From IMG/VR virus record IMGVR_UViG_3300042559_001610, positions 1 to 59,156 of that record: a stretch of 59,156 nt of DNA; one strand, given 5' to 3'. Below the pieces are notes generated by a model, which had not been told where the DNA came from, searched no databases, and saw only the letters and a program-made list of their open reading frames with translations. The DNA is from a virus (lineage: Duplodnaviria > Caudoviricetes). Both the position numbers and the translations under genes were made by a program. Shown here piece after piece: positions 37,115 to 51,523 of the stretch (positions are counted from its first letter, which is position 1; every line of letters starts with the position of its first letter).

Positions 37115-37139
37115 TTTATTTATCTAAATATACGGTTAG

Positions 37140-37371: not shown

Positions 37372-37476
37372 TAGTCAGGGCAGGAATCGAACCTGCGAGT
37401 GCTTTGCCATAAAGAGTGCCATTAGCTGTTAATCTCAACCTTGGGAGGTGCCACGTTACCACTACGCCACCTGACT
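37372..37476 (-). ncRNA. AGTCAGG-family tRNA-like RNA
   Basis: Acceptor, D arm and T arm conserved; aberrant anticodon domain. Confidence 0.65.
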
Positions 37477-37622
37477 ATATTTGACCACTGGTGGGATTTG
37501 AACCCCGAAGACCTTACGTATCGGTCACCCTCCTGTTCGTCCGTTCCAAACGTAACTTACATCAGTGATTTTTAATCAATAGGGGGACTACGAATCCCTA
37601 GAACAGGTACTCCTATTGAAGT

Positions 37623-37702
37623 TGGTAGTCAGTGCAGGATTCGAACCTACTTGTAGGATTTTCCGCCCTACTTTTCCAGGTGTCTTGTACTTCGACCTGA
37701 CT
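37623..37702 (-). ncRNA. AGTCAGG-family tRNA-like RNA with encoded CCA
   Basis: AGTCAGG...GTAGG TTCGAAT CCTGC ACTGACT A CCA. Confidence 0.6.
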
Positions 37703-37904
37703 ATATTTAAAAAATCCGAGGGGGCCTCACCGTCCCTCTATGTGGCTGAGTTAAACTCTTCTCTCAAGAGGAGATACCATCATGTGCCGGCCTATTACTT
37801 GTTTACACTACCGGATTCTTTTTGTCTTTTACTATTTCAAATAACTTTTTGTTTCGATTAAATATACGGTCGATACCGAGATTTAATTCTGATCTGGACC
37901 ACAT

Positions 37905-38550
37905 TTATTGTAATTCCATTTCTTTTAATTCATAGACTACAATTTCGCAATCAATTTCTCCAAAATCTTTGTTTGTTGGATTTGGAGGTGTTTTCCATCC
38001 CTTATGGGTGTCAAACAATTGATTACCCATTTCCGGTGTTATCCTTTCTAAAACCCCCTTTTCTTTCCAAACTTTAATACCCGCTATTTCAAGTTTTATT
38101 CTAAGGAATTTACCAGTAGGAATATGTCTTATTTTATACAATTTACTCATATTGATGACTGTTGTCTTTAATGTATTCAAATGCTGCTGAATAAGCTTCT
38201 TGTGGTGAATTAAATTCCCCTCCAAATCCGCCATATTTATGCCCTTTTAATTGTAATAATCTGATGTTAAATTTCCAATAAGTGGATCCTTCTTCTCTGT
38301 CCACACAAACCCAAATTCCATGGTTAACTCTTAACCATTCAACTACTTGCCATTGTTCAGGTACAGGAATCCATTTATCATCTGGAAATACTTCTTCTGA
38401 AAAATCACTTTCATGACATCTTCCTTGTATATCTTTATCATAATAATCGTAATAACTTGCAAAGGCCTGAAATATTTTATGATAGTTAAATCCTTTTTCT
38501 TTAAGCCATTTAGCTTGTTCAAAGGTTACATACTTTGGTTTTATTTCCAT
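37905..38550 (-). CDS. Two hypothetical phage proteins (about 37905-38150; 38143-38550)
   Basis: ORF track; VTFEQAKWLKEKGF phage-type motif. Confidence 0.6.
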
Positions 38551-38588
38551 ATATTAGAATATACGGTCGGGGATTAGGATCCCCAGCA

Positions 38589-38662
38589 GGGTGAATACTG
38601 GGAATCGAACCCAGATTACTGGCACCACAAACCAGTGTCTTGACCGTTAGACGATACTCACC
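38589..38662 (-). tRNA. tRNA-His(GTG) with G-1
   Basis: Cloverleaf, loop TTGTGGT, C73. Confidence 0.9.
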
Positions 38663-38676
38663 ATATTTATTTTTTG

Positions 38677-38747
38677 AACCCCCGGCAGGACTCGAACCCG
38701 CATCAGACGATCCGTATTCGCCCATTCTTCCGTTGAACTACAGGGGC
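38677..38747 (-). tRNA. tRNA-Arg(ACG)
   Basis: Cloverleaf, loop ATACGGA. Confidence 0.85.
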
Positions 38748-38754
38748 AGTTCGA

Positions 38755-38967
38755 TTAGACTATCCATCTAATCAAAAGCTTTGCTGGCATATGAAGCAGA
38801 AAGTCCGAATCTCCCATATCAGAAACTGGGATCTCGAATCTAACCTCATGCTCGTAGTCATCCACATCTACTACAACAGCGTAGTAAGCAGTTCCCTTTC
38901 GGATCATCTGGAAGTTTGCTTCCGGATTCTGTTTATACAGAGCTTTCTTTATTTCATTTTTTTCCAT
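38755..38967 (-). CDS. Hypothetical protein (start MEKNEIKK)
   Basis: The track's upstream extension overlaps tRNA-Trp. Confidence 0.6.
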   Translation of the reverse strand: MEKNEIKKALYKQNPEANFQMIRKGTAYYAVVVDVDDYEHEVRFEIPVSDMGDSDFLLHMPAKLLIRWIV

Positions 38968-38984
38968 AGTTTCTTCTTTAGCAG

Positions 38985-39055
38985 CACGAGCGGAGGGACT
39001 CGAACCCCCATCAACGGTTTTGGAGACCGGTATGCTACCATTGCACCACACTCGT
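38985..39055 (-). tRNA. tRNA-Trp(CCA)
   Basis: Loop CTCCAAA, G73. Confidence 0.9.
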
Positions 39056-39064
39056 GTATATTTG

Positions 39065-39140
39065 AGGTCAAACTCAGAATCGAACTGAGATTAAGTAGAT
39101 TTTGCAGACCTACCCCTATACCAGTATTGGGTATTTGACC
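39065..39140 (-). tRNA. tRNA-Cys(GCA)
   Basis: Loop CTGCAAA, U73. Confidence 0.85.
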
Positions 39141-39152
39141 ATAGCAGTGGAT

Positions 39153-39374
39153 TTACTTCCACTGTGTTTTTCTGTTGTGTTTCCAGGTCCTGTACATTCT
39201 CATCTTGTAAGACTCGAGTCTTTTTCCTGGATTCTTAAATCCTCTTCTCCAAGAGGGATATAGGTTTAACCCATCGTCCCAATAAGGAGGGTAATTTTCT
39301 TCTAGCCAAAGAATTCTATATTCTCTGGAAGTTTTTGCTTCATCTAAGAAGCTGCGTTTTCTGTTTTTTGACAT
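39153..39374 (-). CDS. Small basic hypothetical protein
   Basis: Ends RTWKHNRKTQWK. Confidence 0.6.
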   Translation of the reverse strand: MSKNRKRSFLDEAKTSREYRILWLEENYPPYWDDGLNLYPSWRRGFKNPGKRLESYKMRMYRTWKHNRKTQWK

Positions 39375-39431
39375 GATCTATTAGAGTTACCTAATAGAAG
39401 TCCATTTCTTTTTTCATATTTGAATATACGG

Positions 39432-39520
39432 TGGCGGAGAGCTGAGGTGTCGATCCCCATACATTTTTCAGTACCCACAGTTTTCAAGACTGCGACTCAG
39501 GCCGCTGAGTTTAACTCTCC
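39432..39520 (-). tRNA. tRNA-Ser(TGA)
   Basis: Loop CTTGAAA, long variable arm, GCCA end. Confidence 0.85.
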
Positions 39521-39528
39521 ATTTTTTG

Positions 39529-39600
39529 CAGACCAGGTAGGTTTCGAACCCACAGCCTCAGGGATTGGAATCCTGCGCTCTACCGTTGAGCTACTGGCCT
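39529..39600 (-). tRNA. tRNA-Trp(CCA), second copy
   Basis: Loop TTCCAAT, G73. Confidence 0.85.
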
Positions 39601-39607
39601 ATTTTTG

Positions 39608-39690
39608 TGGGTAGGGAGGGACTCGAACCCCCAAGGCCCGAAGGCGGCAGAGTTACAGTCTGCTGAGCCAACCAATTGCTCAACCTACCC
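39608..39690 (-). tRNA. tRNA-Tyr(GTA)
   Basis: Loop CTGTAAC, long variable arm. Confidence 0.9.
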
Positions 39691-39742
39691 ATGGTGGCTA
39701 TCTAAACTCATATAGAGAACTTCGCCGATTAGTTTTTTTTAG

Positions 39743-39828
39743 TAGCTCCACCCGGACTCGAACCGGGATTCTACTTCTCGTCTCCACTTTGTAAGAGTGG
39801 GATGTTTATCCAGTTACACCATAGAGCT
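39743..39828 (-). tRNA. tRNA-Val(TAC), enlarged variable loop
   Basis: CCACT CTTACAA AGTGG. Confidence 0.8.
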
Positions 39829-39836
39829 ATTTTTTG

Positions 39837-39913
39837 TGACCCCGGTGGGAATCGAACCCACATTTACACGAGTTAAAAGCTCGTTCCTATGGCCAGTATA
39901 CGGGTACGAGGTC
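39837..39913 (-). tRNA. tRNA-Lys(TTT)
   Basis: ACGAG CTTTTAA CTCGT. Confidence 0.85.
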
Positions 39914-39919
39914 ATTTTG

Positions 39920-39991
39920 CGGACCCTCCCCGGATCGAACGGGGGCTACCAGGGCTTCACTCTGGCGCTCTACCATCTGAGCTAAGGGTCC
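39920..39991 (-). tRNA. tRNA-Phe(GAA), atypical loop
   Basis: Loop GTGAAGC. Confidence 0.75.
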
Positions 39992-40018
39992 ATTTTTTCT
40001 AGTATGTCAAATAACTTT

Positions 40019-40094
40019 TGGTTGTCTGGGAAAGACTCGAACTTTCAACTTTCTCCGTATCAGGGAGATGCTCTAACCATTGAACTACCAGACA
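40019..40094 (-). tRNA. tRNA-Ile(GAT)
   Basis: TCTCC CTGATAC GGAGA, CCA encoded. Confidence 0.9.
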
Positions 40095-40096
40095 AT

Positions 40097-41062
40097 TTAT
40101 TTTTTTCTATATTTACGAGAACAAGAATTATTACAAAAAGTGTTTATTCTTTTACATTTGGACCCACAATATTTACAAGTCCCTGAATATAAAGAATTAT
40201 TTTTATCCTCGTATAGCTTTATAAAGTCGTTTCCATATTTAGTTTTAACATATTCTAATATAGGTTTCATTTCCCTTTTATAAAAAACTATAACGTCAGG
40301 GTTTTCTTTATGTTTTTGTTCCCATTCTTTTGTTTTAAATCCTTTTATTTCTACAATCCCCTCCTGGGTTACAAAGTCTGGCAAATATTTTCTAGTTTTC
40401 CCTTCCAATGTATATTCTCTCCATTCGGTGTTTCTTTCTATTTTTTCCCCCATATCTTTTTTATAAATAACAAAAGCTAACTCCCAACTACTGTCACAGA
40501 ATATCCCTTTATACCATCCTTTCTCCCCTCTTCCAGACCCTTCTCTTTTTCCGCCAGATACTTTTTTAAAGCATTCCCCGTGATATTTTCTATCTGGATA
40601 TGTACTAATTATATTTTCATTACAATGTAAACATTTTGCTTCATATCTTTGGGCTCTAAGAGGTTTTTTTGCATTTTTTGCTGCTTCTATAACCTTTGGA
40701 TTTCCTTTTAAACCTTTTGATATATTTTCTCTCCTTTTTTCCAGATTAGCATTAGCTGCATATTTATTAGCACAATTTCTTCCGCAAAAGTATTTTTCTT
40801 TCTTCGGGGATTTCCTGTTATATTCTAAAACACTAAATCCAATCTTACAGGTAAAACAATTAACATCAAACTCTTTATATTTTAATTTATTTTCTTTTTT
40901 TACTTTTTCTATCCCTTCTCGAGCTTTTTCGCTTTTTGATAGAGAATTTCTTATTTTATCCCTATGCTCTTGCGTTATTTTTCTTCCTTTTTGAGAACAA
41001 CTTCTAGAGCAATGCATTCCATTTTTTTCATGGGGATTTCCACATTTTTTACAGTTTTTCAT
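40097..41062 (-). CDS. Putative homing endonuclease (Zn fingers, NUMOD-like, PD-(D/E)XK) inside the tRNA array
   Basis: CSRSC motifs, DSSWEL, YLPDF....VEIKG. Confidence 0.75.
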   Translation of the reverse strand: MKNCKKCGNPHEKNGMHCSRSCSQKGRKITQEHRDKIRNSLSKSEKAREGIEKVKKENKLKYKEFDVNCFTCKIGFSVLEYNRKSPKKEKYFCGRNCANKYAANANLEKRRENISKGLKGNPKVIEAAKNAKKPLRAQRYEAKCLHCNENIISTYPDRKYHGECFKKVSGGKREGSGRGEKGWYKGIFCDSSWELAFVIYKKDMGEKIERNTEWREYTLEGKTRKYLPDFVTQEGIVEIKGFKTKEWEQKHKENPDVIVFYKREMKPILEYVKTKYGNDFIKLYEDKNNSLYSGTCKYCGSKCKRINTFCNNSCSRKYRKK

Positions 41063-41102
41063 ACTCTATATATCTTTCGAACCCTAATTTTTTTAATGAT
41101 TG

Positions 41103-41176
41103 TATTACCGCACAGAATCGAACTGAAATTTCCGCAGTGAAGTTGCAGTGTCCTAAACCATTTAGACGACGGTAAC
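41103..41176 (-). tRNA. tRNA-Glu(TTC), atypical loop
   Basis: CTGCA ACTTCAC TGCGG; Glu-type D arm GTCTAAATGGTTTAGGAC. Confidence 0.75.
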
Positions 41177-41227
41177 ATTTTTTTCTAATATTTCAAATAA
41201 CTATTTTTTTTATTTTTAGGGACAAAC

Positions 41228-41256
41228 AAAAAAGGAACCTTTTGAGGGGTTCCTTT
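41228..41256 (-). terminator. Attenuator terminator of tRNA operon 1
   Basis: AAAGGAACC-CCTCAAAA-GGTTCCTTT-TTT. Confidence 0.85.
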
Positions 41257-41281
41257 AAAATATCTGTATAAAAATTTCTTC

Positions 41282-41410
41282 TTATTCAAAAATCTTATGA
41301 AACCCATTTAGACGCTTAAAGCAAATCCAATAGACGATCACCTCAACTTCATGTACGAAGCTTGAGAACGATTTCTCTGATTTCTTTAATATGTTAATTA
41401 AGTTTCTCAT
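41282..41410 (-). CDS. Leader peptide (42 aa) of tRNA operon 1
   Basis: MRNLINILKKSEKSFSSFVHEVEVIVYWICFKRLNGFHKIFE*; GATATATA motif at 41425-41432; terminator just downstream. Confidence 0.8.
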   Translation of the reverse strand: MRNLINILKKSEKSFSSFVHEVEVIVYWICFKRLNGFHKIFE

Positions 41411-41578
41411 TTCTTTGATTGGTTTATATATCTTATTAGTTGTGTAAATATACGGTAGTTATACTGTTTTTTGGTAAAAAATTTCAAATATTTTCAATTA
41501 TTTTCAAACTTTTTTGATTTTTTTATTTGTTTTATTGAATATACGGTGATTATACACAAGATTTAGAAAAAGTTTCAA

Positions 41579-44500
41579 TTATTTTCTTATCTCCCCTAGC
41601 TTTTGAATTACATCTCCAAAGACTCTAGCCGTTTCGGATCTGTCTACAAATCTGTTATAATCTTTGGGCTTTACGTGAATAGCATAACGATCTGATGCAA
41701 ACACGGAGTTTCCATCAATTCCGGAACTATAATTATCAGGGATTCCAAAATCTTTTGGCCTTTTAAAAGTGTATGCTTGCCCATATGGTATAATGTCCCC
41801 TTTATAGAATAGGAAATCAAAAAGATCCGAAGACATGGCTGGATATTCTTTCCCAGTTATTTCTGTTCCAAATCCAACTCCATTAGGTCCATGTCCAAAT
41901 CCAAAATCTTCTCCAAAGGACCATTTTGTCTTGTGACCTATGTCATGTAGGGTGTCCTGAAGATCTCTAAGTTCTTCTTCTGAGTAGTCTTCAAATACTT
42001 TGATGTGCTTCATTTTTTTAGTTCGTTATAAAATTTCAGAAGAGATTCTGTGTAAGTTTCTTCGTGAGGACCATTTTTAAAAAATTGGTTTGCATAGTTT
42101 GTATTTCCGTCAAAACCATCCCCAGTGATGAGTAGTTCTGGTGATCCCCAGCCTGCGTATGTCGGAATTGTTAAATCAATTTTAACTCCGTTGCTCAGGA
42201 TCAAATGAAGATCTGCAAGAAAGTGAGATCCCATCTCACCATCTACGGAAAGAAGGGCAACGTCACTCTTGTAATTTCTGGCAAATTCTTCTTCTCTATC
42301 TCGTTCCTTTTTATACATTGCATCAGAACGAACATTAAATTTTAAATCGTGATGCCCTATTCCTCTAAGGTCTCCAATTAGATCCCCGAGTTCTTCTTCT
42401 GAGTAGTCTTCAAAAAGTTTAATGTGCTTCATGATTTAAGTTCTGATAAGTATTTTTCAATTTTTAGATATCTTGATTTAGCATTACTCGCATAAAATGC
42501 TATTCTAAATAGGTTTGTTCCAAATAAAGTTATAGCAGCTTTAATTTTTGGATCGGTAAATTGATAATAATTTGCATCTGGATTTGGTTTGGCTATTATC
42601 CCTTTATCCTCTAACTTTTTAATTCCTAATTTAGTGAGATATAAGGGATATCCCTGGCTAGCACCATCATGAAGAGCCGTTCCATATCCAAAATCCCTGC
42701 CCTTTTGAAGGAGTTTGTACTCATGACCAATCCCCTCTAGATCAACTTGGAGTGCCCTAAGTTCTTCGTCTGAGTAGTCTTCAAAAAGTCTAACGTGTTT
42801 CATTTTCTAATAGAAGATAGATAGTCAAAAACCTCCTGAGCAAAATCTTTCTTTATTTTTAGTCTTTCTTCAGTAGAAAGTCTGACGTGGGGTTTTACTT
42901 CAAGAGAATAGTCTCCTTCTGAGGGATCAAAAATACCCTGTTGAAAATAACGATAGACTGAATAGCTTGGGTATTTCAAAGAAAGTCCTACAGAGTCATC
43001 AAAATAAATAGCTCCTGGGGTGTGTGAGTCTCTTTTCATGAGGCCCTTTTTAAGCATATCCTCCACAACTGATTTTTTTATCACCAGATCTTCATATCCT
43101 GTATTTGGTCTTTTCATAAACCACTTCCTTTGCTGCTGTATGTCCTTTCCAAATCCAAAGTCTTCTCCAGGAATAAGCCTGTATGTGTGTCCAATGGTTT
43201 CTAAGTCCCCTAAAAGGCCCTCTATTTCTTCGTCTGAGTAGTCTTCAAATAGTTTGATGTGTTTCATCATATTAGTTTATCATATAGTGAGAGAGCGGAT
43301 AAAATCCATCCTCCTGGATATTCAAACATTTCATCTCCTACGGTTTCTTTGATTTCTTTTCCTCCAGTAAAGATGGTGATGTGTCCTAGATATCTATTAA
43401 AGGAATTATTTCCAGTATTTTTGAATTCAAATTCAAATTTGTCTCCGTTGGATAAATCCAGATTTAGCTGGATATCTTCTGGGTCGTTTTTATTGATTAT
43501 GTGTCCTTCAACTCTAACAACATGAACACCAGGATTTTCTTCAGAAACCCAATTTTCGCATTCATCTTTTTCAACTTTAGGATTTCCCCATGATTTGGAC
43601 AAATCAACATTAAAAATTAGATTGCTGTGACCAACACCTTTAAGATCTCCCATGAGATCTCTAAGCTCTTCTTCTGAGTAGGACTCTTTAAGACCTAGCT
43701 TTGACTTTATTCTTTGCAGAAAGGTTGGGTTTTTACTTCTGGATTTGTTAGCCAAATGACGTTCGTATCTCGTCAGAGCAGCCAAGGTGTGTGGATATTC
43801 CACGATTCCCATGTTATAGTTTTCGTTGTCATATGGGGAGTCGTCTTCATCATCTTCTAAATTGAGTATGGGATTTCCATTGACAGAAAAAGAGACCCCT
43901 TCGTAATTGTCTGTCACTGTTTCGATGACATCACCATTGGAAAGGTTTAGGGCAACAAGAACCTTATTGTCCGGGAGAATTTTGAGAGACCCAGATTTAA
44001 CTTTAATTTCCCCTCCTGGGGTTGGAAAAGACCAGGAATTAACGATGTCCCTCTCTTCTTGTTTATCCTTCTCCTTCATCCCAAATAAATGACCATAGTC
44101 TATATCCATACGAACTTCAGACTGCCCAACAGATCTCAGATCTCCAATGAGGTCCCTAAGTTCTTCATCCGTGTACTCCTCAAATAGTTTAATGTGCTTC
44201 ATCTTCTAAAAATGCTTCTCCTTTAGATTTGATTCCGTCGTAGAGATCAAGACAAGCTCTAACTACACTTCCAGATTCTAATAGCTCCAAATATTTTTCT
44301 TTAACCTCATAGTATCTGTCGTTGAGAGTAAAAGTCCCCTCGTCCTTATTGTCAGATCCTTTGTTTCCAGGCCCAGATTGGTAATAAAAGTAGAGATTAG
44401 CACGGTCACCGTTGGAAAAAACAAAGTCTAGATCAGTAGTTTCCTCGCTGATCTCTCCAGAAACTGATTTCAAGTAGGTACCTGGGCTAGATTTGGATTT

Positions 44501-45374
44501 CCAAAACTCTGCTTGCTTTGCCTCTTCTTCTGCCAATTCTGGATAGTCTATGTGATCTATATCCACCTCGACAACATTATGTCCAATCCCATAAAGGTCC
44601 TTCATCAGAGAATCTAAATCTTCTTCTGAGTACTCCTCAAAAATTCGGATGTGCTTCATTTCATTTAATCTAATATATCAATCGGGCTTCCCTGAAGAGA
44701 TCCATATCCCTTCATTTTTTTTGCTATTTCAACTAGAAAACCCCCTACTTCCTTTTTTCCCTTGAACTTTTTAATTTCCTCTGGACTCATTCCCAGTATT
44801 TTCCCGAGCTTTCCAATAACCGGGTAGAGCATGGCTGGGTTTAACCTGTGAACTTTATTTCCATATCTAGTCCCTATCTTTAGCGGAGATTCTGCAAGTC
44901 CTACTGAGGATAGATCATCTATTAGATCCCCTATCTCTTCTTCTGTGTAGTCTTCGAATAGTTTAATGTGCTTCATTACCTCTTGTTTTTATTGTAGTAG
45001 TCAGACATTTTGAGGTAGAGCTTGTAGAGTGGCTCCTGTTCTATTTTAGAGGTCGACCATCTTTCGTACGTTCCCATTCTCATGGGGCCACTCAGATTGT
45101 ATCTAGCGTGGTCTTCCACTGAGTTTTCATAAAGGTACCAGATCATGTCGTAGTAGTCTCCCTTCGTGTCTATATCAAAGTCTTCTGGGTTGGTGTAGTA
45201 GTCGTATAGGTACTCCGCATAGTCCTCAGCAGACATTCCCCCACCAAATTGGTTTATGAACTTTAGCATGTCCTCTTCTTCTTCAGTCAGAGCATGCCCA
45301 ACCGATCTTAGGTCCCCGATCAGGTCCTTTAGTTCCTCGTCTGAATAGTCTTCAAATAGTTTAATGTGTTTCAT
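41579..45374 (-). CDS. Tandem array of eight MKHIKLFEDYSEEEL..L..DL..IGH proteins (putative capsid-targeted internal proteins)
   Basis: 41579-42013, 42010-42432, 42429-42803, 42800-43270, 43267-44202, 44189-44659, 44665-44976 and 44976-45374 share a ~27 aa N-terminus; the bodies are mostly unrelated. Confidence 0.85.
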
Positions 45375-45385
45375 TTAATAATCTT

Positions 45386-45520
45386 TTATTTAGGCATTTC
45401 TCTCACACAATTCGGAACTACTCTGCCATTCTTCTTTTTGGTTCCAATTTGCTTATATCCCTTCCAGCATGGATTTTTTTCCTCCAGCACAAATTCGTTA
45501 TATTCTCTAAGAAATTTCAT
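45386..45520 (-). CDS. 44-aa PCWKGY-motif phage protein (below the track cutoff)
   Basis: MKFLREYNEFVLEEKNPCWKGYKQIGTKKKNGRVVPNCVREMPK, downstream of GATATATA at 45525-45532. Confidence 0.7.
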   Translation of the reverse strand: MKFLREYNEFVLEEKNPCWKGYKQIGTKKKNGRVVPNCVREMPK

Positions 45521-45544
45521 AATCTATATATCCTTTTATTCCAC

Positions 45545-46045
45545 TTACTTGGCGGAATAAATTTCAACTACAGATCCATCAGATCGAAAAATTCTAACGT
45601 CTGGTGATGTCCAACCATATTCGTCTGCCAAATACTGTGCATAAGACTCTGGAGTTGCAAAGACCACATCCCAATTTCTGTCCTTCCATCCTCCTTTAGA
45701 CGCTGCTACCGATGCTCCGTACTTCTCAGCAACCGAAGCTGCTTCTTTCTCAGTCATTGAACCGTAAGAACGAGGAAAGGACACCTCATGACCGCTGTAC
45801 CATCGGTCTCCGCAGCAAGGACAATCCATTCCCTCGTCTACTCCATTGAAGTAAACACCCATAGACTCGGCTTTAAGTTCTGCTTCTGCTTCGGAAGCAG
45901 CTTCTATTAGAAGTCTATGACAAACTTGAGAATTTGTAACGAAACTTCCACCTGTGTTGTTCTGGCTGAACTCGTAAAATTTTTGTAGTTTAGATTCTTT
46001 GACTGTTGATTTTATTTCTTTCATATTGTTTAAATTCACGTTCAT
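45545..46045 (-). CDS. Conserved phage hypothetical protein
   Basis: QNNTGG...YFNGV...DCPCCGDRW. Confidence 0.7.
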   Translation of the reverse strand: MNVNLNNMKEIKSTVKESKLQKFYEFSQNNTGGSFVTNSQVCHRLLIEAASEAEAELKAESMGVYFNGVDEGMDCPCCGDRWYSGHEVSFPRSYGSMTEKEAASVAEKYGASVAASKGGWKDRNWDVVFATPESYAQYLADEYGWTSPDVRIFRSDGSVVEIYSAK

Positions 46046-46214
46046 AAAAACCGGACCAGTTTCTGAAACGTCTTCCAGTCTTTGTCCGGGGTGTCAATAT
46101 AGGTTATGCCTTGGGCTATTCCCTTGTTTGACTTGAAAACACCTCAGGAGTGAGCAGATCTAACGGTATGCTTCGAGGCAATTTGTTCCTTTGAACTATT
46201 AGAAAAACCAGGTG

Positions 46215-46288
46215 TGTCGAGAACAGGAGTTGAACCTGTGACCTTGAGGTTATGACTCTCACGCTACTACCAACTGAGCTACCTCGAC
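46215..46288 (-). tRNA. tRNA-Met(CAT)
   Basis: Loop GTCATAA. Confidence 0.75.
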
Positions 46289-46350
46289 ATGGAGCCGGCA
46301 CCAGGATTCACTGGTGGATCGCCCGGCATTTATTTCCCAATTAGGGGTCG

Positions 46351-46423
46351 AGCGAGAAACCAGGTACGATCTGGCAACCTCCGACTTGGAAGGACGGCGC
46401 TCTACCAATTGAGCTACTCTCGC
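46351..46423 (-). tRNA. tRNA-Gly(TCC)
   Basis: Loop CTTCCAA, U73, atypical T loop ATCGTAC. Confidence 0.8.
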
Positions 46424-46537
46424 ATGGCGGACAAGCGAGTAATTTAATACTTCCTCTCATCCATAGTCACATCTTAGATTTAACTCCGCTTGTGCTAAGC
46501 TCGGACTGTATACCGGCATTTGTTCTGTTAAGAACCG

Positions 46538-46612
46538 TGGAGCAAGTGATAGGAATCGAACCTACGTCTCAGGCTTGGAAGGCTAGAGTAATAACCACTA
46601 TACGACACTTGC
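46538..46612 (-). tRNA. tRNA-Gly(TCC), second copy
   Basis: Loop CTTCCAA, TCCA end. Confidence 0.85.
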
Positions 46613-46624
46613 TTGTAAAAAATA

Positions 46625-46764
46625 CAGGATTGGGGTTTTTTTCCTGCTCTAACCAACTGAGCTACTCTGAACGATGCCACTTAAGGCTGTGTTCAAAGGA
46701 AGGACTCGAACCTCCGACCCGGGCATTATAAGTGCATTTTTTTAATTTTTGCTGTAACAATCCT
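46625..46764 (-). ncRNA. Y-RNA-like RNA 1 (stem-ACAGCAA scaffold plus permuted tRNA, TAT loop)
   Basis: AGGATTG/CAATCCT closing stem; T arm precedes D arm. Confidence 0.8.
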
Positions 46765-46775
46765 TTAATAAGTTT

Positions 46776-46904
46776 CAGGTTTCAGGTTTTTTGACCAGTG
46801 CGTCTACCAATTTCGCCATCGGGGATTTCTCCCTCTGTGGGGCTCGAACCCACACATCCTTTCGGATATCGGTTTTGATTATTTTTTCTTGCTGTAAGAA
46901 ACCT
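46776..46904 (-). ncRNA. Y-RNA-like RNA 2 (permuted Leu-like tRNA)
   Basis: AGGTTTC/GAAACCT stem, ACAGCAA, variable arm, T arm, GAAA-closed acceptor, Leu-type D arm. Confidence 0.75.
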
Positions 46905-46955
46905 TTTATTATCTTAGATCAGTAAGTGAAAATAGTTTCATTTACTGATCTTTTG

Positions 46956-47031
46956 TCTCCGCGGAGGGCTTCGAACCCCCAGTAATGTCCTCGTCCCAAA
47001 CGAGGCGACTTCCCAATTAGTCTACACGGAG
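46956..47031 (-). tRNA. tRNA-Pro(TGG)
   Basis: CCTCG TTTGGGA CGAGG. Confidence 0.85.
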
Positions 47032-47120
47032 AAATTATGGGTGGGATCAGAGGCCTTCTGCCCACCGGGACCTTCATTTTGAGATTGCTCTCAGGGAACG
47101 AAGACACTTTTTTAAAAATG

Positions 47121-47246
47121 CGGGATCGCATGTTTTTGGCCTGCTGCTCTACCAACTGAGCTACCGGGGATGCCGAAGCATTGTCCCCAGGTGAGACTCG
47201 AACTCACGACCCGCGGGTTGGATTTTTTCGTTGCTGTAACGATCCC
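47121..47246 (-). ncRNA. Y-RNA-like RNA 3 (permuted tRNA)
   Basis: GGGATCG/CGATCCC stem, ACAGCAA, T arm, acceptor closed by a TTCG hairpin, then D arm. Confidence 0.8.
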
Positions 47247-47256
47247 AATAAATTTA

Positions 47257-47314
47257 CAGGATGCTTGTTTTTTCAATTTAAAAGTTTGATTTTTTGATTT
47301 GCTGTATGCATCCT
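47257..47314 (-). ncRNA. Y-RNA-like RNA 4 (scaffold plus Lys-type anticodon stem-loop)
   Basis: AGGATGC..ACAGCAA..TCAAA CTTTTAA ATTGA..GCATCCT. Confidence 0.7.
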
Positions 47315-47324
47315 TTAATAAGTT

Positions 47325-47386
47325 CAGGTTAGTTTTTGATTTTACATCCAATTGTATAATTTTTTTAATTTTGCTGGAACTAACCT
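47325..47386 (-). ncRNA. Y-RNA-like RNA 5 (minimal)
   Basis: AGGTTAG..CCAGCAA..TACA ATTGGA TGTA..CTAACCT. Confidence 0.65.
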
Positions 47387-47393
47387 TTTTTTG

Positions 47394-47467
47394 CAGTTCG
47401 TACGGGATTCGAACCCGTGATCTCCACGATTGACAGTCGGGTATCTTAACCGCTAGACCAACGAACT
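47394..47467 (-). tRNA. tRNA-Asp(GTC)
   Basis: Loop CTGTCAA, G73. Confidence 0.85.
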
Positions 47468-47630
47468 ATGTTTAAAAAAGAAAATAATGAGGGAGTACCC
47501 GTCTCGCTCCAATCTTAATTGCTTCTTCAGTTTTAATGAGGCCTCGGCAAAGGGTGGTGCACTTCTTAAATTCCGTTCCTGGTTTGTCGACAACCGAAAA
47601 ACAGAGAAGGCCATTATTTTCTTTTATCTT

Positions 47631-48539
47631 TTATTGTTTCCAAGATTTTCTTTTGAAACAATTAATTTCATAAAATTCTGGGAGAAATCTTTTCATCCAT
47701 CCATTTATTTTTTGATCTGATAATCCAACTATTTTAGAAGCTTGAGATACCCATCCAAAGGAAGAAAAATCTATGCCTGATGAAATTAATTCTTCTGCAA
47801 TTCTTTGATTCTTTTCGTTGTATTGTATTGCATTTAAAGCTCTCTTATCTACTTTTGGGGTTTTTAATTCTTTGGATCTTATTAATCTTTCTTCTAATTT
47901 TTTAGTTTCGGAATTTGAAAGGAAGGAAATTAAGTCCTCGATTTTAAAGCTCTCTGTCTCGTCATAAGCTATTCTATAAACTCTCCATCCTGATTTTTCT
48001 AAATTATGATCCCTGGTTATGTCATGATCTATTCTTTTTTTATTTATAAAATGACATTTTCCATCAAATTCAACTGCTACTTTTTCATTAATAAAAGCAA
48101 AATCAATAAAATATGGATAAACTGGATGTTGAAAGATAACATCATACTTTGAATAAATCTTATTCTCTTCAAATATATTGTGTAACCATTCCTCTCCGTA
48201 GGTCATTAACCCGTTTGCTACTTTACCCCAAGCCGTTTTTTGGAAATTGTTTTTATCCGAAAGATATTCGAATCTTTTTTTCCTCATTTTTTCCTTAGTT
48301 TCTTCTGAATATACTTTAGTATGACTGAGTGTTTTTAAACATTTTTTATCTCCACAAGTGGAATTAAATTTTATACCTCTTCTTAATTTTCTATTTTTTT
48401 CACAATATGGGCACTTAGGAATTTTCATATTTTCATATTTTTGATAATATTCAAGAAGACTGATTCCATATTTTTTTAAACTTGTCGATAGACCTAATTT
48501 ATTTTTACAAATTGTTCCATCTATTTTAGATATAATCAT
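47631..48539 (-). CDS. Putative homing endonuclease (DUF559/Vsr-like)
   Basis: YFIDFA....VAVEFDG..H......D..RD..LEKSGWRVYRI. Confidence 0.8.
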   Translation of the reverse strand: MIISKIDGTICKNKLGLSTSLKKYGISLLEYYQKYENMKIPKCPYCEKNRKLRRGIKFNSTCGDKKCLKTLSHTKVYSEETKEKMRKKRFEYLSDKNNFQKTAWGKVANGLMTYGEEWLHNIFEENKIYSKYDVIFQHPVYPYFIDFAFINEKVAVEFDGKCHFINKKRIDHDITRDHNLEKSGWRVYRIAYDETESFKIEDLISFLSNSETKKLEERLIRSKELKTPKVDKRALNAIQYNEKNQRIAEELISSGIDFSSFGWVSQASKIVGLSDQKINGWMKRFLPEFYEINCFKRKSWKQ

Positions 48540-48596
48540 AATCTATATATCCAAATTAAGTTCGAATAATTTGTCGTTTTGCCATTTTTTAAGTTG

Positions 48597-48679
48597 TTAT
48601 CCCGTCAGGAGTCGAACCTGAATACAGCTTTCGCTTCCAGAGCCAAAATCTGGGGTGTTGCCAGTTACACTACAGGATA
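48597..48679 (-). tRNA. tRNA-Gln(TTG), long variable arm
   Basis: CCAGA TTTTGGC TCTGG, U1-A72. Confidence 0.8.
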
Positions 48680-48691
48680 ATTTATTTGGGG

Positions 48692-48765
48692 TGGGCCATA
48701 CAGGGCTCGAACCTGTGACCTTGACATTATGAGTGTCCCGCTCTGACCAACTGAGCTAAAGGCCC
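48692..48765 (-). tRNA. tRNA-Ile2/Met(CAT), probably Ile2 reading ATA
   Basis: GGGCC acceptor typical of Ile2, loop CTCATAA. Confidence 0.8.
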
Positions 48766-48810
48766 GATTTTTCTAATATGTCAAATAACTCTTTGTGAAG
48801 TAACATACGG

Positions 48811-48899
48811 TGGCAGAAGATACAGGACTCGAACCTGTACACCGAATTAACGGTGAGCTAGTTAGCAACCAGTTGCAGTACCATTATGCTTAATCTTCT
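48811..48899 (-). tRNA. tRNA-Ser(GCT)
   Basis: Loop TTGCTAA, long arm, GCCA. Confidence 0.85.
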
Positions 48900-48904
48900 A
48901 ATTG

Positions 48905-48980
48905 TGGAGCTAGTGGGAATCAAACCCACCACAGTCTGATTGCAAATCAGACTCGCCGAAGTCTTGGTACATGTAACCCC
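48905..48980 (-). tRNA. tRNA-Ala(TGC)
   Basis: G3:U70, loop TTTGCAA. Confidence 0.85.
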
Positions 48981-48989
48981 ATTTTTATT

Positions 48990-49077
48990 TGGCGGAGAGG
49001 ACAGGATTCGAACCTGCGGTACCTTTCGGTACACATGCTTTCCAAGCATGCTCCTTAAACCACTCGGACACCTCTCC
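48990..49077 (-). tRNA. tRNA-Ser(GGA)
   Basis: Canonical; loop TTGGAAA, GCCA. Confidence 0.95.
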
Positions 49078-49082
49078 AGGTG

Positions 49083-49166
49083 AGCCAGATGTAGGATTCG
49101 AACCTACGGTGTACTTTCGTATCCGGTTTACAAAACCGGCGCTATCGACCTCTAAGCGAATCTGGC
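49083..49166 (-). tRNA. tRNA-Thr(TGT), long variable arm
   Basis: CCGGT TTTGTAA ACCGG. Confidence 0.85.
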
Positions 49167-49239
49167 GTTTTTGACAAGCTTATAACTGGTCCTGTCCAGT
49201 ACTTGTCGTGTATGCCACTTTCCAGGATGAGATCAAAAA

Positions 49240-49413
49240 TTACTTACAGTCTGCACTGTCAGAACAAACTGATGTGCTGTCTGGGCAAACACAAGCAGTG
49301 TCTTTGTTACAAGTGCTGTCGCATTTACTAGCGCAATTGCTAGATTGATTTGATCCGTTAGAGCAAGAGCCCAATGCTAATGCTAAAGTTAAAGCTAAGA
49401 TTAAGTTTTTCAT
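49240..49413 (-). CDS. 57-aa Cys-rich lipoprotein (below the track cutoff)
   Basis: MKNLILALTLALALGSCSNGSNQSSNCASKCDSTCNKDTACVCPDSTSVCSDSADCK; lipobox LGSC. Confidence 0.7.
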   Translation of the reverse strand: MKNLILALTLALALGSCSNGSNQSSNCASKCDSTCNKDTACVCPDSTSVCSDSADCK

Positions 49414-49434
49414 TTTTATTTTTAAGTTGTTTTG

Positions 49435-49506
49435 CTGGGATGGAGAATTTCGAAATCTCGACCTACGGATTAACAGTCCGCCGCTCTGCCTCTGAGCTAC
49501 ATCCCA
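49435..49506 (-). tRNA. tRNA-Asn(GTT)
   Basis: GCGGA CTGTTAA TCCGT. Confidence 0.9.
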
Positions 49507-49516
49507 ATGTAATTTG

Positions 49517-49608
49517 CTGACTAAAAGGGATTCGAACCCTAAACTCCCGCCCTATTGTCTTCCGTTAAGAATATCGTCGGGCAGTGTGCTCCAATACACC
49601 ATAGCCAA
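49517..49608 (-). ncRNA. tRNA-like RNA with expanded anticodon domain
   Basis: D arm GTGT..ACAC, T arm TAGGG TTCGAAT CCCTT. Confidence 0.55.
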
Positions 49609-49657
49609 TCGAGAGTTTCGAACCTCTCAGTTTTAGGTTAATTACTCCTAAAATTTG

Positions 49658-49731
49658 TTGCGGCTCTCAGGATTCGAACCTGGTGTCTCTGGGTTATGAG
49701 CCCAGTATGTAAGCCATTTCACTCAGCCGCA
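49658..49731 (-). tRNA. Initiator tRNA-fMet(CAT)
   Basis: CTGGG CTCATAA CCCAG (three G-C pairs). Confidence 0.85.
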
Positions 49732-49741
49732 ATTTATTTAG

Positions 49742-49848
49742 CCCCTCCAGCTGGATTCGAACCAGCTTACTCGTGGATGAATTCGTCGGGGGATACCGAA
49801 AGGGCGATTCATCCGTCTCTGTGTTTTACCTCATAGAACTACAGAGGG
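49742..49848 (-). ncRNA. tRNA-like RNA with a long hairpin replacing the anticodon arm
   Basis: CCCTCTG/TGGAGGG acceptor, T arm, GGATGAAT/ATTCATCC stem. Confidence 0.6.
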
Positions 49849-49854
49849 ATTTTG

Positions 49855-49965
49855 TACAAAAGGCAGGACTTGCACCTGCATGGTTCGGTTACCCTGTACC
49901 GACCCCTGACGGGGTCACGTCTGTCTATCATCCTTTTTCGAATATGGATGCTTCCGCCACTCTTG
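49855..49965 (-). ncRNA. tRNA-like RNA with D-loop insertion
   Basis: ACAAGAG/CTTTTGT acceptor, GCAGG TGCAAGT CCTGC, GACCCC GTCA GGGGTC. Confidence 0.55.
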
Positions 49966-50102
49966 TATTTTTGGCTTTTCTAATATGTCAAAGAACCAAT
50001 AAAGATTTTTTATTGTCTTTATTGTACCTAAGTATACGGTCTTGTTTCGTAGAACCTAAGAGGAAATTAAAAATTTTTTAATTATTTTTTAATTTCTTTT
50101 TT

Positions 50103-50552
50103 TGGTGGAGCAGGGGGGAATCGAACCCCCGTCTTGTTCAGCTTGTTCAAGGACTCGTTCACATGCTTAGATCAGTTTTTCTAAACTGTCAAAATTTGTC
50201 ACCTGGATTTTTTGACTGATTCCTTGGTGACCGTTTTATCAGCGAACCTTCCGATAGTGTCGATCTGAATGGGTATTGGATTTCTCCTCAAGGTTTCACT
50301 CGGTTTCCACTTGGCGGTACTACAAACCTTTTTCCCGCATGTGAGATTTTCTGTTCCTGGGTAATCTCAAACCCGATGAGAATTAAGCTGCAATAGCTAA
50401 TTCAGCTCCTACTAAAGACATTGCATCTTCAAAGGAGAAAGTTGACTTTTCGCCGTTTACATTTTATATAGGTGATTAAAGAGTTTCCAATACTAACTCT
50501 GCATGCATCATCACGAAAATCAAGAACTGCCAATCGATGCCTGGTCTGCCCC
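50103..50552 (-). ncRNA. ssrA: tmRNA
   Basis: 5' GGGGCAG, 3' T arm plus CTGCTCC-ACCA (G3:U70); tag ORF 50383-50454 ending AIAA*. Confidence 0.92.
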
Positions 50553-50614
50553 ATAAATTAAAGAACTGTTTATCTAATATACGACTATAGATACGGACCT
50601 GTAGAAAATTTCAT

Positions 50615-50647
50615 AAAAAAACCTGAACTTTTTAAAGGTTCAGGCTT
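50615..50647 (-). terminator. Attenuator terminator of tmRNA/tRNA operon 2
   Basis: AAGCCTGAAC-CTTTAAAAA-GTTCAGGTTT-TTTT. Confidence 0.85.
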
Positions 50648-50673
50648 AGTAGAGGATCTTCTATATTTCTATA

Positions 50674-50769
50674 TCACGATATTCGAACTAAGCCTGCAGC
50701 ATCCGGGTTGCCGTCTCCTGTAGTAGAGGCTCCCATCTGATTTATATTTGCTTGACTTATCGAAATCAT
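50674..50769 (-). CDS. Leader peptide (31 aa) of tmRNA/tRNA operon 2
   Basis: MISISQANINQMGASTTGDGNPDAAGLVRIS*; GATATATA at 50792-50799; perfect 10-bp antiterminator 50687-50696/50641-50650. Confidence 0.85.
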   Translation of the reverse strand: MISISQANINQMGASTTGDGNPDAAGLVRIS

Positions 50770-50911
50770 TTTTTAGTTTTTTATTGTTTGTTATATATCA
50801 ATTTGTTTTTAAAGTTTCACATTTTTTTCCACTATAATTGAAAAAAATTGAATTATTTTCCATTTTTTTCCACTAAGGCCACATTTTTTGGAAAAATTTT
50901 CCACTATAGGC

Positions 50912-51523
50912 TTAAGCGAAGAAGGTTTTACCCTCTATATTTGAGATGTCTTGGAGTTTTCCGTCCATTTCAACCGAAAGAATTTTTAGTGGAACCCCTT
51001 TAATGAGGGTTATTTCTTTCTCGTCATCCCCAGTAAAAGGTTCGACGTTGGTGATTAGAGTCTTTTCCCAGTCAACTCCATTCTCAGGAACTTCTGCTTC
51101 TATCAAGACTTTAGATGGCTTGCTGTAGTCACCCCAGTGTGTGTCTGCTGAGTCAGAATCCCAAGTCCAATAGATACCAAGGTGTTTCCCTTCGCGTTCT
51201 AAATGATCAAGCCACGAGCTTGTAACGGTCATTGCTCTCCATATAGTCGCCTTTCCGTTTCGAATAACATCATTTTTATATACGCTAATCAGTTCTTCCA
51301 TCTTATATCTTAGATCATATTCTAACCAATTCAAGAAATCCTCTTGATCTATATCTTCGTCATCAACATCGGTTAGCTGCTCCTCGTCTTTGTAAAGGGT
51401 CATAGCCCATTCGTCTTTAGCTGCCATGTCTTCGACAAAATCTCGGGTAAGAATTGAATCCAGATTTACCGAGGATAAGAGAGACTCGGTGATGAAATTT
51501 TCAAAGAGTGTTAGGTGTTTCAT
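50912..51523 (-). CDS. Hypothetical protein with MKHLTLFENF N-terminus (possible ADP-ribosyltransferase-like fold)
   Basis: IWRAM..GIYWTW..EKEITL; the fold call is tentative. Confidence 0.55.
   Translation of the reverse strand: MKHLTLFENFITESLLSSVNLDSILTRDFVEDMAAKDEWAMTLYKDEEQLTDVDDEDIDQEDFLNWLEYDLRYKMEELISVYKNDVIRNGKATIWRAMTVTSSWLDHLEREGKHLGIYWTWDSDSADTHWGDYSKPSKVLIEAEVPENGVDWEKTLITNVEPFTGDDEKEITLIKGVPLKILSVEMDGKLQDISNIEGKTFFA

Follow-up and report, generated by a model that had tools for sequence, protein, structure and literature searches.

The stretch of DNA analysed here (hereafter, the window) comprises 59,156 nucleotides, positions 1 to 59,156 of the IMG/VR virus record IMGVR_UViG_3300042559_001610 (Duplodnaviria; Caudoviricetes), and encompasses two arrays of tRNA genes, the second of which is headed by a gene for transfer-messenger RNA (tmRNA). 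Each array is preceded by a short open reading frame (ORF), which we denote the leader, and by an intrinsic transcription terminator, and the amino acid composition of each leader peptide matches the set of amino acids served by the tRNAs of its own array. Every gene located between 36 and 59 kb lies on the minus strand, as do all window features for which coordinates are given below.

ARAGORN predicts 24 tRNA genes in the whole window, 11 of these (Glu, Ile, Phe, Lys, Val, Tyr, Trp, Cys, Trp, Arg, and His) in 38589–41176 and 12 (Met, Asn, Thr, Ser, Ser, Met(cat), Gln, Asp, Pro, Gly, Gly, and Met) in 46214–49731. When Rfam matches and the ORF list are combined with these predictions, array 1 (38589–41176) reads Glu, a 321-amino acid (aa) ORF, Ile(gat), Phe, Lys, Val(tac), Tyr, Trp, Ser(tga), a 73-aa ORF, Cys, Trp, another ORF, Arg(acg), and His. 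The sole program support for the Ser gene (39435–39521) is a match to the Rfam tRNA-Sec model (47.5 bits, the gathering score being 47), and its anticodon loop, read by eye, is UGA, that is, Ser. Array 2 (46214–49731; ARAGORN, Rfam, and inspection by eye) reads Met (cat, initiator-like), Asn, Thr, Ser(gga), an Ala-like element called by hand, Ser(gct), an Ile2-like cat tRNA, Gln, Asp, Pro, Gly, Gly, and Met, and also includes a 57-aa ORF, a 302-aa DUF559 ORF, and five tRNA-like or permuted elements (49741–49848, 49516–49607, 47143–47214, 46790–46882, and 46615–46744), so that the tRNA set of this array treated as canonical is a selection. The Ile2-like tRNA (48690–48765, anticodon CAT) has C4-G69 and C5-G68, which we take to be TilS determinants. 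The Ala-like element (48904–48980) shows, by eye, a 7-bp acceptor stem with G3:U70, a UGC anticodon loop, a T arm, and a degenerate, non-canonical D arm; only its T arm and the 3′ strand of the acceptor stem align, to a tmRNA model, at 16.9 bits. The tmRNA gene itself occupies 50103–50552 (Rfam, 75.4 bits).

The unit in front of tRNA-Glu of array 1 consists of two ACCGTATA motifs (41449–41456 and 41540–41547), the promoter-like motif GATATATA (41425–41432), 15 nt upstream of the ATG, the 42-aa leader 1 ORF (MRNLINILKKSEKSFSSFVHEVEVIVYWICFKRLNGFHKIFE; 41282–41410), a spacer of about 25 nt, and a terminator hairpin followed by a T run (41226–41256; AAAGGAACC, loop, GGTTCCTTT). The unit in front of the tmRNA gene is built in the same order, with GATATATA (50792–50799), 23 nt upstream of the ATG, the 31-aa leader 2 ORF (MISISQANINQMGASTTGDGNPDAAGLVRIS; 50674–50769), a spacer of about 29 nt, and a hairpin (50615–50644; CCTGAAC, a 9-nt loop, GTTCAGG) with a T run, the terminator region as a whole spanning 50615–50649. 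Folded alone, each hairpin has a predicted stability of −7.6 kcal/mol. The presence of two minus-strand arrays, each following GATATATA, a short ORF, and an intrinsic terminator, which had been put forward in a first-pass annotation of this DNA, was confirmed by ARAGORN, Rfam, and scans for ORFs and motifs. Both motifs are overrepresented in the window and are found exclusively on the minus strand, ACCGTATA in 14 copies compared to 0.54 expected and GATATATA in 12 compared to 2.4 expected; most copies are located 5–45 nt upstream of ATG codons (for example, 7571–7578, 16661–16668, 30375–30382, and 38560–38567), and ACCGTATA frequently abuts the 3′ end of a tRNA gene directly. ACCGTATA and GATATATA are probably two promoter classes of the phage.

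Residues 9–33 of leader 1 include only K, S, E, F, V, H, I, Y, W, C, and R, which is precisely the array 1 set of 11 amino acids; in leader 2, residues 1–26 include only M, I, S, Q, A, N, G, T, D, and P, precisely the array 2 set of 10. We scanned all six frames of the window (1,740 stop-to-stop segments; 75,881 aa) for maximal runs composed solely of residues of one or the other set. Among the 18,939 runs for set 1, the leader 1 run is the longest (25 residues, the next being 20) and the sole one to contain all 11 amino acids; among the 19,148 runs for set 2, the leader 2 run is the sole one with all 10, the longer runs being collagen-like Gly-Ser-Thr repeats. Scored on the set of the other array, the longest runs in the leaders shrink to 3 and 4 residues. 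Random peptides drawn with the amino acid frequencies of the window contained such a run in 11–52 of 2,000,000 cases for leader 1 and 25–97 of 2,000,000 for leader 2, which amounts to about 5e-6 to 5e-5 per leader. The first-pass annotation had described the match as 11 of 11 and 10 of 10. The sets are indeed equal and the runs unique in the window, but the full count requires two tRNAs missed by ARAGORN, namely, the Ser gene recognised only by Rfam and the hand-called Ala-like element, which no program confirms; with automatic tRNA calls alone, the leaders still hold 10 of 10 and 8 of 8 array amino acids.

Both leaders are predicted to fold more stably than shuffled sequences (z about −3), and in the minimum-free-energy folds, the 5′ part of the ORF pairs with its 3′ part, leaving the terminator intact. 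In the absence of a ribosome, leader 2 forms the terminator with a computed probability of 0.96 and leader 1 with a probability of 1.00, so that termination is the predicted default. We then masked a ribosome footprint at each leader codon in turn. For leader 2, the terminator probability is about 0 for a stall at codons 1–12 (codons 1–20 if the upstream RNA is masked as well) and 0.9 or more with the ribosome anywhere between codon 22 and the stop codon. The predicted antiterminator of leader 2 is formed by CAGGCTTAG (50688–50696; codons 25–28) and CTAAGCCTG (50641–50649), which overlaps the 5′ arm of the terminator; it consists of 9 Watson-Crick base pairs, a value reached by 0 of 200 shuffles. 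In leader 1, the candidate antiterminator strand is GGGTTTC (41299–41305; codons 36–38), complementary to GGAACCC of the terminator 5′ arm. In transcripts cut before the 3′ arm of the terminator, this strand, together with an intervening hairpin, is predicted to sequester the 5′ arm for stalls at codons 1–31 and not for later ones. The stretch of in-set residues ends where the pairing strand begins, at residue 33 versus codon 36 in leader 1 and at residue 26 versus codon 25 in leader 2, and the residues outside the set that come after it (L, N, and G in leader 1; L, V, and R in leader 2) are encoded at or beside the antiterminator strand. The occurrence of such residues at the 3′ end of the ORF can be explained by the base-pairing role of the sequence there, where a stall would not cause read-through.

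No close relative of the window was detected among isolated phages, and the two proteins flanking the leaders (50912–51523 and 41579–42013) had no matches in viral contigs. Using the DUF2828/DUF7788 protein (53384–54826) and a 166-aa protein (45545–46045) as anchors, we gathered 59 viral contigs. The closest relatives by the DUF2828 protein, L001–L005 (63–69% identity), carry no tRNAs in the DNA examined, and L016, L017, L019, and L020 showed no convincing leader. Contig L042, which has five proteins in common with the window at 43–58% identity, contains two leader/array units, each preceded by an identical promoter-like stretch, about 40 nt long and including GATATATAA, with GATATATA in front of both leaders. 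In the first leader, each of the 13 amino acids served by its array is represented (P, W, Q, K, Y, N, F, G, M, A, V, R, and I), and the second includes the stretch LDTLHLDHTSSTCESS, behind which come Ser, Ser, Thr, Cys, His, Leu, Ser, Met, Glu, and Asp tRNAs. Thus, L042 splits the amino acid alphabet differently from the window, and its leaders follow that partition.

The combination of an inventory-like ORF, a spacer of 20–45 nt, a terminator, and a tRNA array was also found in unrelated contigs, in particular, L015, L021, L149, L177, L136, and others. In L021, the leader MTYFICKFKEYMTWEGSRG, which includes MTYFICKFKEYM, and its terminator are followed by Cys, Ile, Tyr, Phe, Cys, Lys, Glu, Lys, Phe, Met, Tyr, Glu, and Ile; in L015, a leader containing TAVATTTPVTGG and a terminator precede Pro, Ala, Thr, Gly, Gly, Val, Thr, Pro, Thr, and Thr. 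L149 has two tandem units, a leader with NKQNKLQELW in front of Gln, Lys, Asn, Leu, and Trp, and SYEYSYEYSEF in front of Glu, Phe, Tyr, Glu, Ser, and Ser. The ORFs of L177 (38 aa) and L136 (33 aa) hold all 20 amino acids, and the arrays behind them supply 19. The order seen in the window, the in-set run first and the pairing strand after it, is kept in L015, L021, L042, L111, L136, and L177. BLAST searches of isolated phages with the leader 2 region, the L147 leader peptide, and the L177 array produced no match.

Two isolated phages carry the element. The Synechococcus phage S-PM2 (LN828717.1) was reached through a leader family with the motif DCRYWHIEGxPLFA (L064, L086, L127, and L147). Between its tRNA-Arg and tRNA-Lys genes lies an unannotated ORF, MSNISKQIEIIMESDCRYWHIAQSLLLANKDKRM, with TATAAATA upstream and, downstream, a terminator followed by Lys, Tyr, Asp, Glu, Ile, Ser, Ser, Met, His, Gln, Trp, Arg, Val and, further on, Pro. 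We take TATAAATA to be the T4 late-promoter consensus; such T4-late-like sequences in front of the cyanophage leaders hint at late transcription. The S-PM2 annotation over the leader and terminator (2854–3210) consists solely of a hypothetical coding sequence on the opposite strand, S-PM2d160. The Cellulophaga phage phi4:1 (NC_021788.1) possesses two units behind the same promoter-like region. In the first, MKIQRLHLQELEQPIISGGTGV and a terminator precede Pro, Glu, Gln, His, Leu, Leu, and Arg, and the stretch QRLHLQELEQP is composed of exactly the six amino acids of this array; in the second, an ORF with a non-ATG start that contains KKIKVQLTKTGITVIDKTKGARAYLGDTVIG, followed by a terminator, precedes Ala, Lys, Ile, Gly, Met, Asp, Thr, Val, Arg, Met, and Tyr. 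This second leader is annotated as the hypothetical protein gp075, with a TTG start (9794–9913). A third small ORF of phi4:1, gp076, was considered and rejected because it is not a clean leader and no terminator is present.

Candidates for a quantitative comparison were selected by architecture, without use of composition. In a discovery sample of 119 array-bearing stretches, obtained from viral contigs with a pattern of three consecutive T loops, a fixed procedure searched for an ATG-initiated ORF of 10–70 aa, a simple hairpin with a T run 15–50 nt past the stop codon, and a tRNA within 400 nt, the spacing thresholds having been set after the first examples had been viewed. This yielded 50 candidates, 33 of them with at least 19 aa and at least 3 tRNAs, and 28 of these non-redundant. 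For 11 of the 33 candidates, no more than 1% of 22,847 null ORFs of comparable length had as many distinct amino acids. Across the 28 leaders, 253 of 286 array amino acids are represented in the leader (odds ratio 2.9), which was reached in 1 of 5000 permutations of the leader–array pairing and, as a check that the first-pass annotation had proposed, in 0 of 2000 draws of random ORFs from the same loci. For the 18 partial arrays (at most 13 amino acid types), the match rises to 115 of 124 (odds ratio 5.2; permuted pairing only, 0 of 5000). A second, differently drawn sample was analysed with the thresholds frozen and homologues of earlier leaders removed. Its 17 leaders hold 97 of 115 array amino acids (odds ratio 2.6; 28 of 5000 permutations; 0 of 2000 draws of same-locus random ORFs), and 82 of 96 for the 16 partial arrays (odds ratio 2.8; 16 of 5000; 0 of 2000). 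The expectation that leader composition would covary with tRNA content in other phages is thus borne out in both the discovery and the independent replication sets. Leaders holding at least 80% of the array amino acids were found in front of 13 of the 57 arrays of the first sample that have at least 5 tRNAs and upstream DNA present; this figure is a minimum, since the procedure admitted no starts other than ATG and no hairpins other than simple ones.

The covariation can be traced on a finer scale in the cyanophage family. A degenerate CRYWHIEG pattern retrieved 119 loci with 58 distinct leader peptides, 79 of these loci having adequate arrays. The twelve N-terminal codons of the family are hypervariable in amino acids, and the core is near-invariant even at synonymous sites. 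Within the variable part, the presence of Pro codons is concordant with that of tRNA-Pro in the array in 70 of the 79 loci. In phylogenetically independent pairs, taken from a tree built from the leader core and the downstream DNA, changes summed over amino acids went the same way in 12.7 cases and the opposite way in 2.5 (p about 0.02); for single amino acids, with 5–6 pairs each, this test lacks power.

The spacer between the stop codon and the terminator is 19–47 nt long in 26 high-coverage leaders. At least 6 contiguous Watson-Crick base pairs between the terminator 5′ arm and the 3′ part of the ORF (the last 12 codons plus 8 nt) are available in 17 of 22 leaders, compared to 1 of 22 for the 5′ part (the first 15 codons), and the pairing of the 3′ part beats 95% of shuffles in 15 of the 22. 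In the footprint test, 14 of 30 leaders, compared to 10 of 180 shuffled controls, are predicted to lose the terminator upon an upstream stall and to keep it with the ribosome at the stop codon.

Taken together, these observations make it likely, in our judgement, that the leaders are ribosome-mediated attenuators that sense the decoding of the codon families supplied by the downstream array. The attenuation scheme sketched in the first-pass annotation gains comparative support from the L042 partition, the unrelated contigs, S-PM2, phi4:1, and the 17 of 22 leaders with terminator pairing. Under this model, transcription would start at a phage promoter, putatively GATATATA in the window, and a ribosome would translate the short leader, the first two thirds of which hold at least one codon for each amino acid served by the downstream tRNAs. 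When decoding is fast, the ribosome would cover the antiterminator strand in the 3′ part of the ORF, the terminator would form, and transcription would stop before the array. When any of the listed codon families is decoded slowly because the respective host tRNA is scarce, cleaved, or uncharged, the ribosome would stall upstream, the antiterminator would form, and RNA polymerase would continue into the tmRNA or tRNA array, the newly made tRNAs then relieving the stall in a negative feedback. We infer that the leaders are translated, that in vivo the switch operates in this direction from the promoters indicated, and that the natural trigger may be the loss of host tRNAs, anticodon nucleases, or the state of tRNA charging. 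With somewhat less confidence, we favour the broader view that inventory leaders are widespread tRNA-demand sensors of phages, present in front of about a quarter of the sampled arrays in unrelated lineages (T4-like cyanophages, Cellulophaga phages, and uncultured freshwater phages), which would allow a phage to transcribe just the tRNAs that limit decoding, for example, after the decay of host tRNAs or under a tRNA-cleaving defence.

Several observations weigh against this interpretation. In leader 1, the antiterminator pairing involves only 6 Watson-Crick base pairs (shuffle fraction 0.08), and the terminator wins in all equilibrium states (probability at least 0.7), so that the antiterminator-capable segment claimed for both units in the first-pass annotation is predicted for leader 2, with its 9 base pairs and computed switch, and is weak for leader 1; more generally, equilibrium folding predicts no switch for leader 1 or for 16 of the 30 leaders. 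Codons for Asn and Leu occupy positions 3, 4, 6, and 8 of leader 1, within the predicted read-through zone, and array 1 has no Asn or Leu tRNA; likewise, the cyanophage core keeps Cys, Trp, Pro, Phe, and Leu codons where the arrays lack the respective tRNAs. The cloverleaf of the Ala-like element (48904–48980) is recognised neither by ARAGORN nor by Rfam RF00005. Codons readable by the array anticodons under strict wobble rules are only slightly enriched in the leaders (150 of 252, compared to 133 expected; z 2.3); given this weak match, the design may rely on broad wobble or sense codon families rather than isoacceptors. Shine-Dalgarno-like motifs in front of the leaders are not enriched (5 of 21, compared to 11.9% of the null ORFs; p 0.10). 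No such leader was found for 44 of the 57 sampled arrays, considering ATG starts only, and none comparable was found in phage T5. Finally, the warning in the first-pass annotation about internal promoters proved well founded: promoter-like ACCGTATA motifs, whose excess in the window is noted above, lie downstream of both terminators, at 39425–39432 (array 1), 38560–38567, and 50033–50040 (array 2). Moreover, the motif upstream of the tmRNA gene, GTTCTTTAATTTATGGGG, is present also in 42 viral contigs without a leader; inspection of these contigs by eye revealed no inventory-type ORF before the tmRNA, and few tRNAs come after it. Because of the downstream ACCGTATA motifs and this conserved tmRNA-upstream motif, which suggest further promoters, the attenuators may gate only part of array transcription, and probably gate one promoter class only.

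Of the alternatives, the one that fares best, albeit unlikely in our assessment, retains the attenuator hardware but has it report amino acid supply, tRNA charging, or the overall speed of translation (ribosome availability, the stringent response), tuning the array to the general translational state rather than to the depletion or cleavage of particular host tRNAs. Any leader-peptide attenuator of the trp or his type answers to the availability of aminoacyl-tRNA, whatever the cause, and the weak codon-level match to the array anticodons would fit such a role, as would the leaders that include all 20 amino acids in front of arrays for 19–20 amino acids, which could double as a general speedometer. 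A speedometer, however, needs no tailoring, yet partial arrays have matching leaders (the 115 of 124 amino acids given above, with 0 of 5000 permutations), and where one genome has two leaders, the alphabet is split between them in the same way as between the arrays. Furthermore, additional tRNA would be of no help under amino acid starvation.

The cyanophage core bears on another, improbable, reading, under which the short ORFs encode small phage proteins, or are upstream ORFs that stabilise the precursor RNA or contribute to its processing, the terminators are ordinary gene ends, and the compositional match has no regulatory meaning. The strong conservation of the core, DCRYWHIEGxPLF, speaks for this reading, as does the annotation of gp075 of phi4:1 as a protein. 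The core, however, carries CTCCCC, a copy of the terminator 3′ arm, and together with the near-invariance of its synonymous sites, this points to a constraint on RNA rather than on protein. The N-terminal part is hypervariable, the pairing between the ORF and the terminator is not predicted by a protein role, and leaders of different lineages share no sequence similarity while their composition tracks the array.

A reversal of the logic, such that stalling favours termination and the array is made only upon efficient translation of the leader, as a checkpoint, appears marginally less probable still. This would accommodate leader 1, which keeps its terminator in all equilibrium states, but not leader 2 or the 14 of 30 leaders whose predicted terminator disappears with the ribosome upstream and is kept with the ribosome at the stop codon; the complementary strand also lies in the 3′ part of the ORF, precisely where a terminating ribosome would cover it. 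A ribosome-independent, T-box-like device, in which tRNA anticodons pair with codon-like triplets of the leader and stabilise the antiterminator, is a distinctly remote prospect, even though the regulated genes and the signal would both be tRNAs and the T-box also ends in a terminator/antiterminator pair: no T-box or other riboswitch family was matched in Rfam searches with E up to 1, one tRNA per specifier cannot account for 10–20 different triplets, and the triplets form a single frame between the ATG and the stop, a frame that is open in all 73 distinct DNA variants of the cyanophage family (variants selected for an in-frame ATG). Chance combined with selective reading, that is, free choice of the ORF, of the sensing stretch, and of the tRNA-like elements counted, can be dismissed almost entirely, despite the two required tRNAs missed by ARAGORN (one of them by every program), the five tRNA-like elements left out of the set, and the spacing thresholds fixed after examples had been viewed, given the 10 of 10 and 8 of 8 with automatic calls, the uniqueness of the runs in the window, and the replication on new loci with frozen thresholds.

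The attenuation of array transcription that we propose resembles several known systems. In the trp, his, phe, and leu attenuators of Escherichia coli and Salmonella, a leader ORF contains codons matched to the product of the operon, terminator and antiterminator are mutually exclusive, and the position of the ribosome decides between them. The phage units share with these the short ORF in the 5′ leader, the matched codons, and the terminator, together with a predicted, mutually exclusive antiterminator near the end of the ORF, but differ in that the regulated genes are those for tRNAs and tmRNA rather than enzymes, with feedback through tRNA supply, and in that the leaders address 4–20 amino acids, mostly with one to few codons each, rather than containing a run of a single residue. 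Multivalent attenuators exist as well, the ilvGMEDA leader having Leu, Val, and Ile codons and the thr leader Thr and Ile codons. There, as would be the case in the phage units, a single leader senses several amino acids relevant to the operon products; those leaders, however, sense two or three amino acids in clustered runs, whereas the phage leaders address up to 20, and the alphabet can be split between two leaders in step with their arrays. In T-box riboswitches, the state of a specific tRNA drives the choice between terminator and antiterminator for genes of the translation apparatus. The phage units differ in that a translating ribosome would read the codons and many tRNA species would be monitored together; no Rfam match to a T-box was detected in the window at the gathering score, nor at E up to 1 in 34000–52000. 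In the drug-sensing leaders of the erm, cat, and msrD type, stalling on a short upstream ORF switches RNA structure, but it is an antibiotic, acting with the nascent peptide, that brings the ribosome to a halt, and the peptide sequence matters, whereas in the phage leaders, the cause would be tRNA supply and the relevant property would be the amino acid inventory. Leader-peptide transcription attenuation is the subject of PMC1183508.

With the view of phage tRNA arrays as insurance against tRNA loss or host defence, the present proposal shares both the genes and the suggested selective pressure. PMC10264068 deals with the sequence and function of tRNAs in phage arrays and PMC11464382 with the PARIS system and a viral tRNA, and control of array transcription by a leader is not among the contents of the available parts of these works; in the accessible text of PMC10264068, the terms terminator, leader, attenuat-, promoter, and upstream occur 0 times. 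The available portion of PMC10690425 contains no description of such leaders either, and the candidate structured RNAs from IMG/VR in its supplement could include these regions. A search of the full-text literature, in the searchable part that covers few subscription journals and excludes supplements, found no description of leader peptides before phage tRNA arrays, in agreement with the statement of the first-pass annotation that no such case was known to it. The components are those of classical attenuation; not found in print were their placement before tRNA genes, an inventory reaching 20 amino acids, the split of the alphabet between leaders in line with the arrays, and the spread among phages.

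The purpose of phage tRNA arrays is an old question, and their control is largely unknown. If the proposed mechanism is correct, array expression is tied to decoding demand, the idea of insurance against tRNA loss or defence becomes directly testable with simple reporters, and classical attenuation, a matter of enzymes and of one to three amino acids, is extended to tRNAs and to the full alphabet. Each leader would then serve as a written inventory of its array, in which even non-canonical tRNAs overlooked by gene finders, the Ala-like element among them, are entered. For annotators, this would be a new element, given that the S-PM2 leader is unannotated and one of the two phi4:1 leaders is recorded as hypothetical protein gp075; for synthetic biology, it would offer a compact natural sensor of the availability of a chosen set of tRNAs. 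Cultured systems carrying the element exist, namely, Cellulophaga baltica with phi4:1 and Synechococcus with S-PM2.

The arrays of the window are interspersed with protein-coding genes. The DUF559 ORF of array 2 (302 aa) is located at 47631–48539, and the 321-aa ORF of array 1 (40097–41062) has no Pfam match; from its position and Cys-rich sequence, we take it to be nuclease-like. Between tRNA-Asn and tRNA-Thr of array 2, the 57-aa ORF (49240–49413) has a lipoprotein-like signal (LALALGSC) and a tail rich in Cys, Ser, and Asp, and similar lipoprotein-like small ORFs occur upstream of the tmRNA in L191, L202, L205, L212, and L215, contigs with the tmRNA motif. Located between the two arrays are eight tandem paralogues (41579–45374) beginning with MKHIKLFEDY and two more ORFs (45386–46045). 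Together with an extra copy upstream of leader 2 (50912–51523), the paralogues start with MKH(I/L)(K/R/T)(L/V/I)FE and diverge in their C-terminal parts; the only one scanned (41579–42013) belongs to no Pfam or PHROG family.

Among the extra elements of array 2, three (46615–46744, 47143–47214, and 46790–46882) are permuted tRNA-like structures with the order T arm, closed acceptor stem, D arm. Two of the permuted elements match the Rfam YrlA (Y RNA-like) family below threshold, with 38 and 34.8 bits compared to the gathering score of 69. The DUF2828 and DUF7788 domain protein (53384–54826; PHROG annotation ‘RNA-binding protein’) and a T4 Rnl1-type RNA ligase (56103–57203) are encoded 3–10 kb upstream of the permuted elements, and together these could make up a phage Ro/Y-RNA-like module beside an RNA repair enzyme. 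The same two genes lie 3–6 kb upstream of the leader region, a neighbourhood that fits the theme of tRNA damage but proves nothing. Downstream of array 1 and behind ACCGTATA motifs, six further tRNA-like elements (35924–37703) have a common acceptor-stem start, TAGTCAGGT, which is present in 6 copies compared to 0.25 expected; several of these have long insertions in the anticodon region and are detected by ARAGORN only in intron mode, with Rfam tRNA matches of 105–114 nt.

Elsewhere in the window, an ORF that runs off the end (1–4903) encodes collagen-like Gly-Ser-Ser and Gly-Thr-Ser repeats, with runs of up to 259 residues, and a protein of L042 is similar to it, with 50% identity over 200 aa. 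Auxiliary metabolic genes are located at 8632–9942, 21769–22818, and 34357–35619 and encode a thymidylate synthase with a long insertion (436 aa, compared to a profile of 266 positions), a glutamine-synthetase-like protein, and a class I/II aminotransferase. At least 71% of the words of the window are contained in each of 22 sequencing runs of lake-water DNA, compared to 6–9% in two runs of wastewater RNA.

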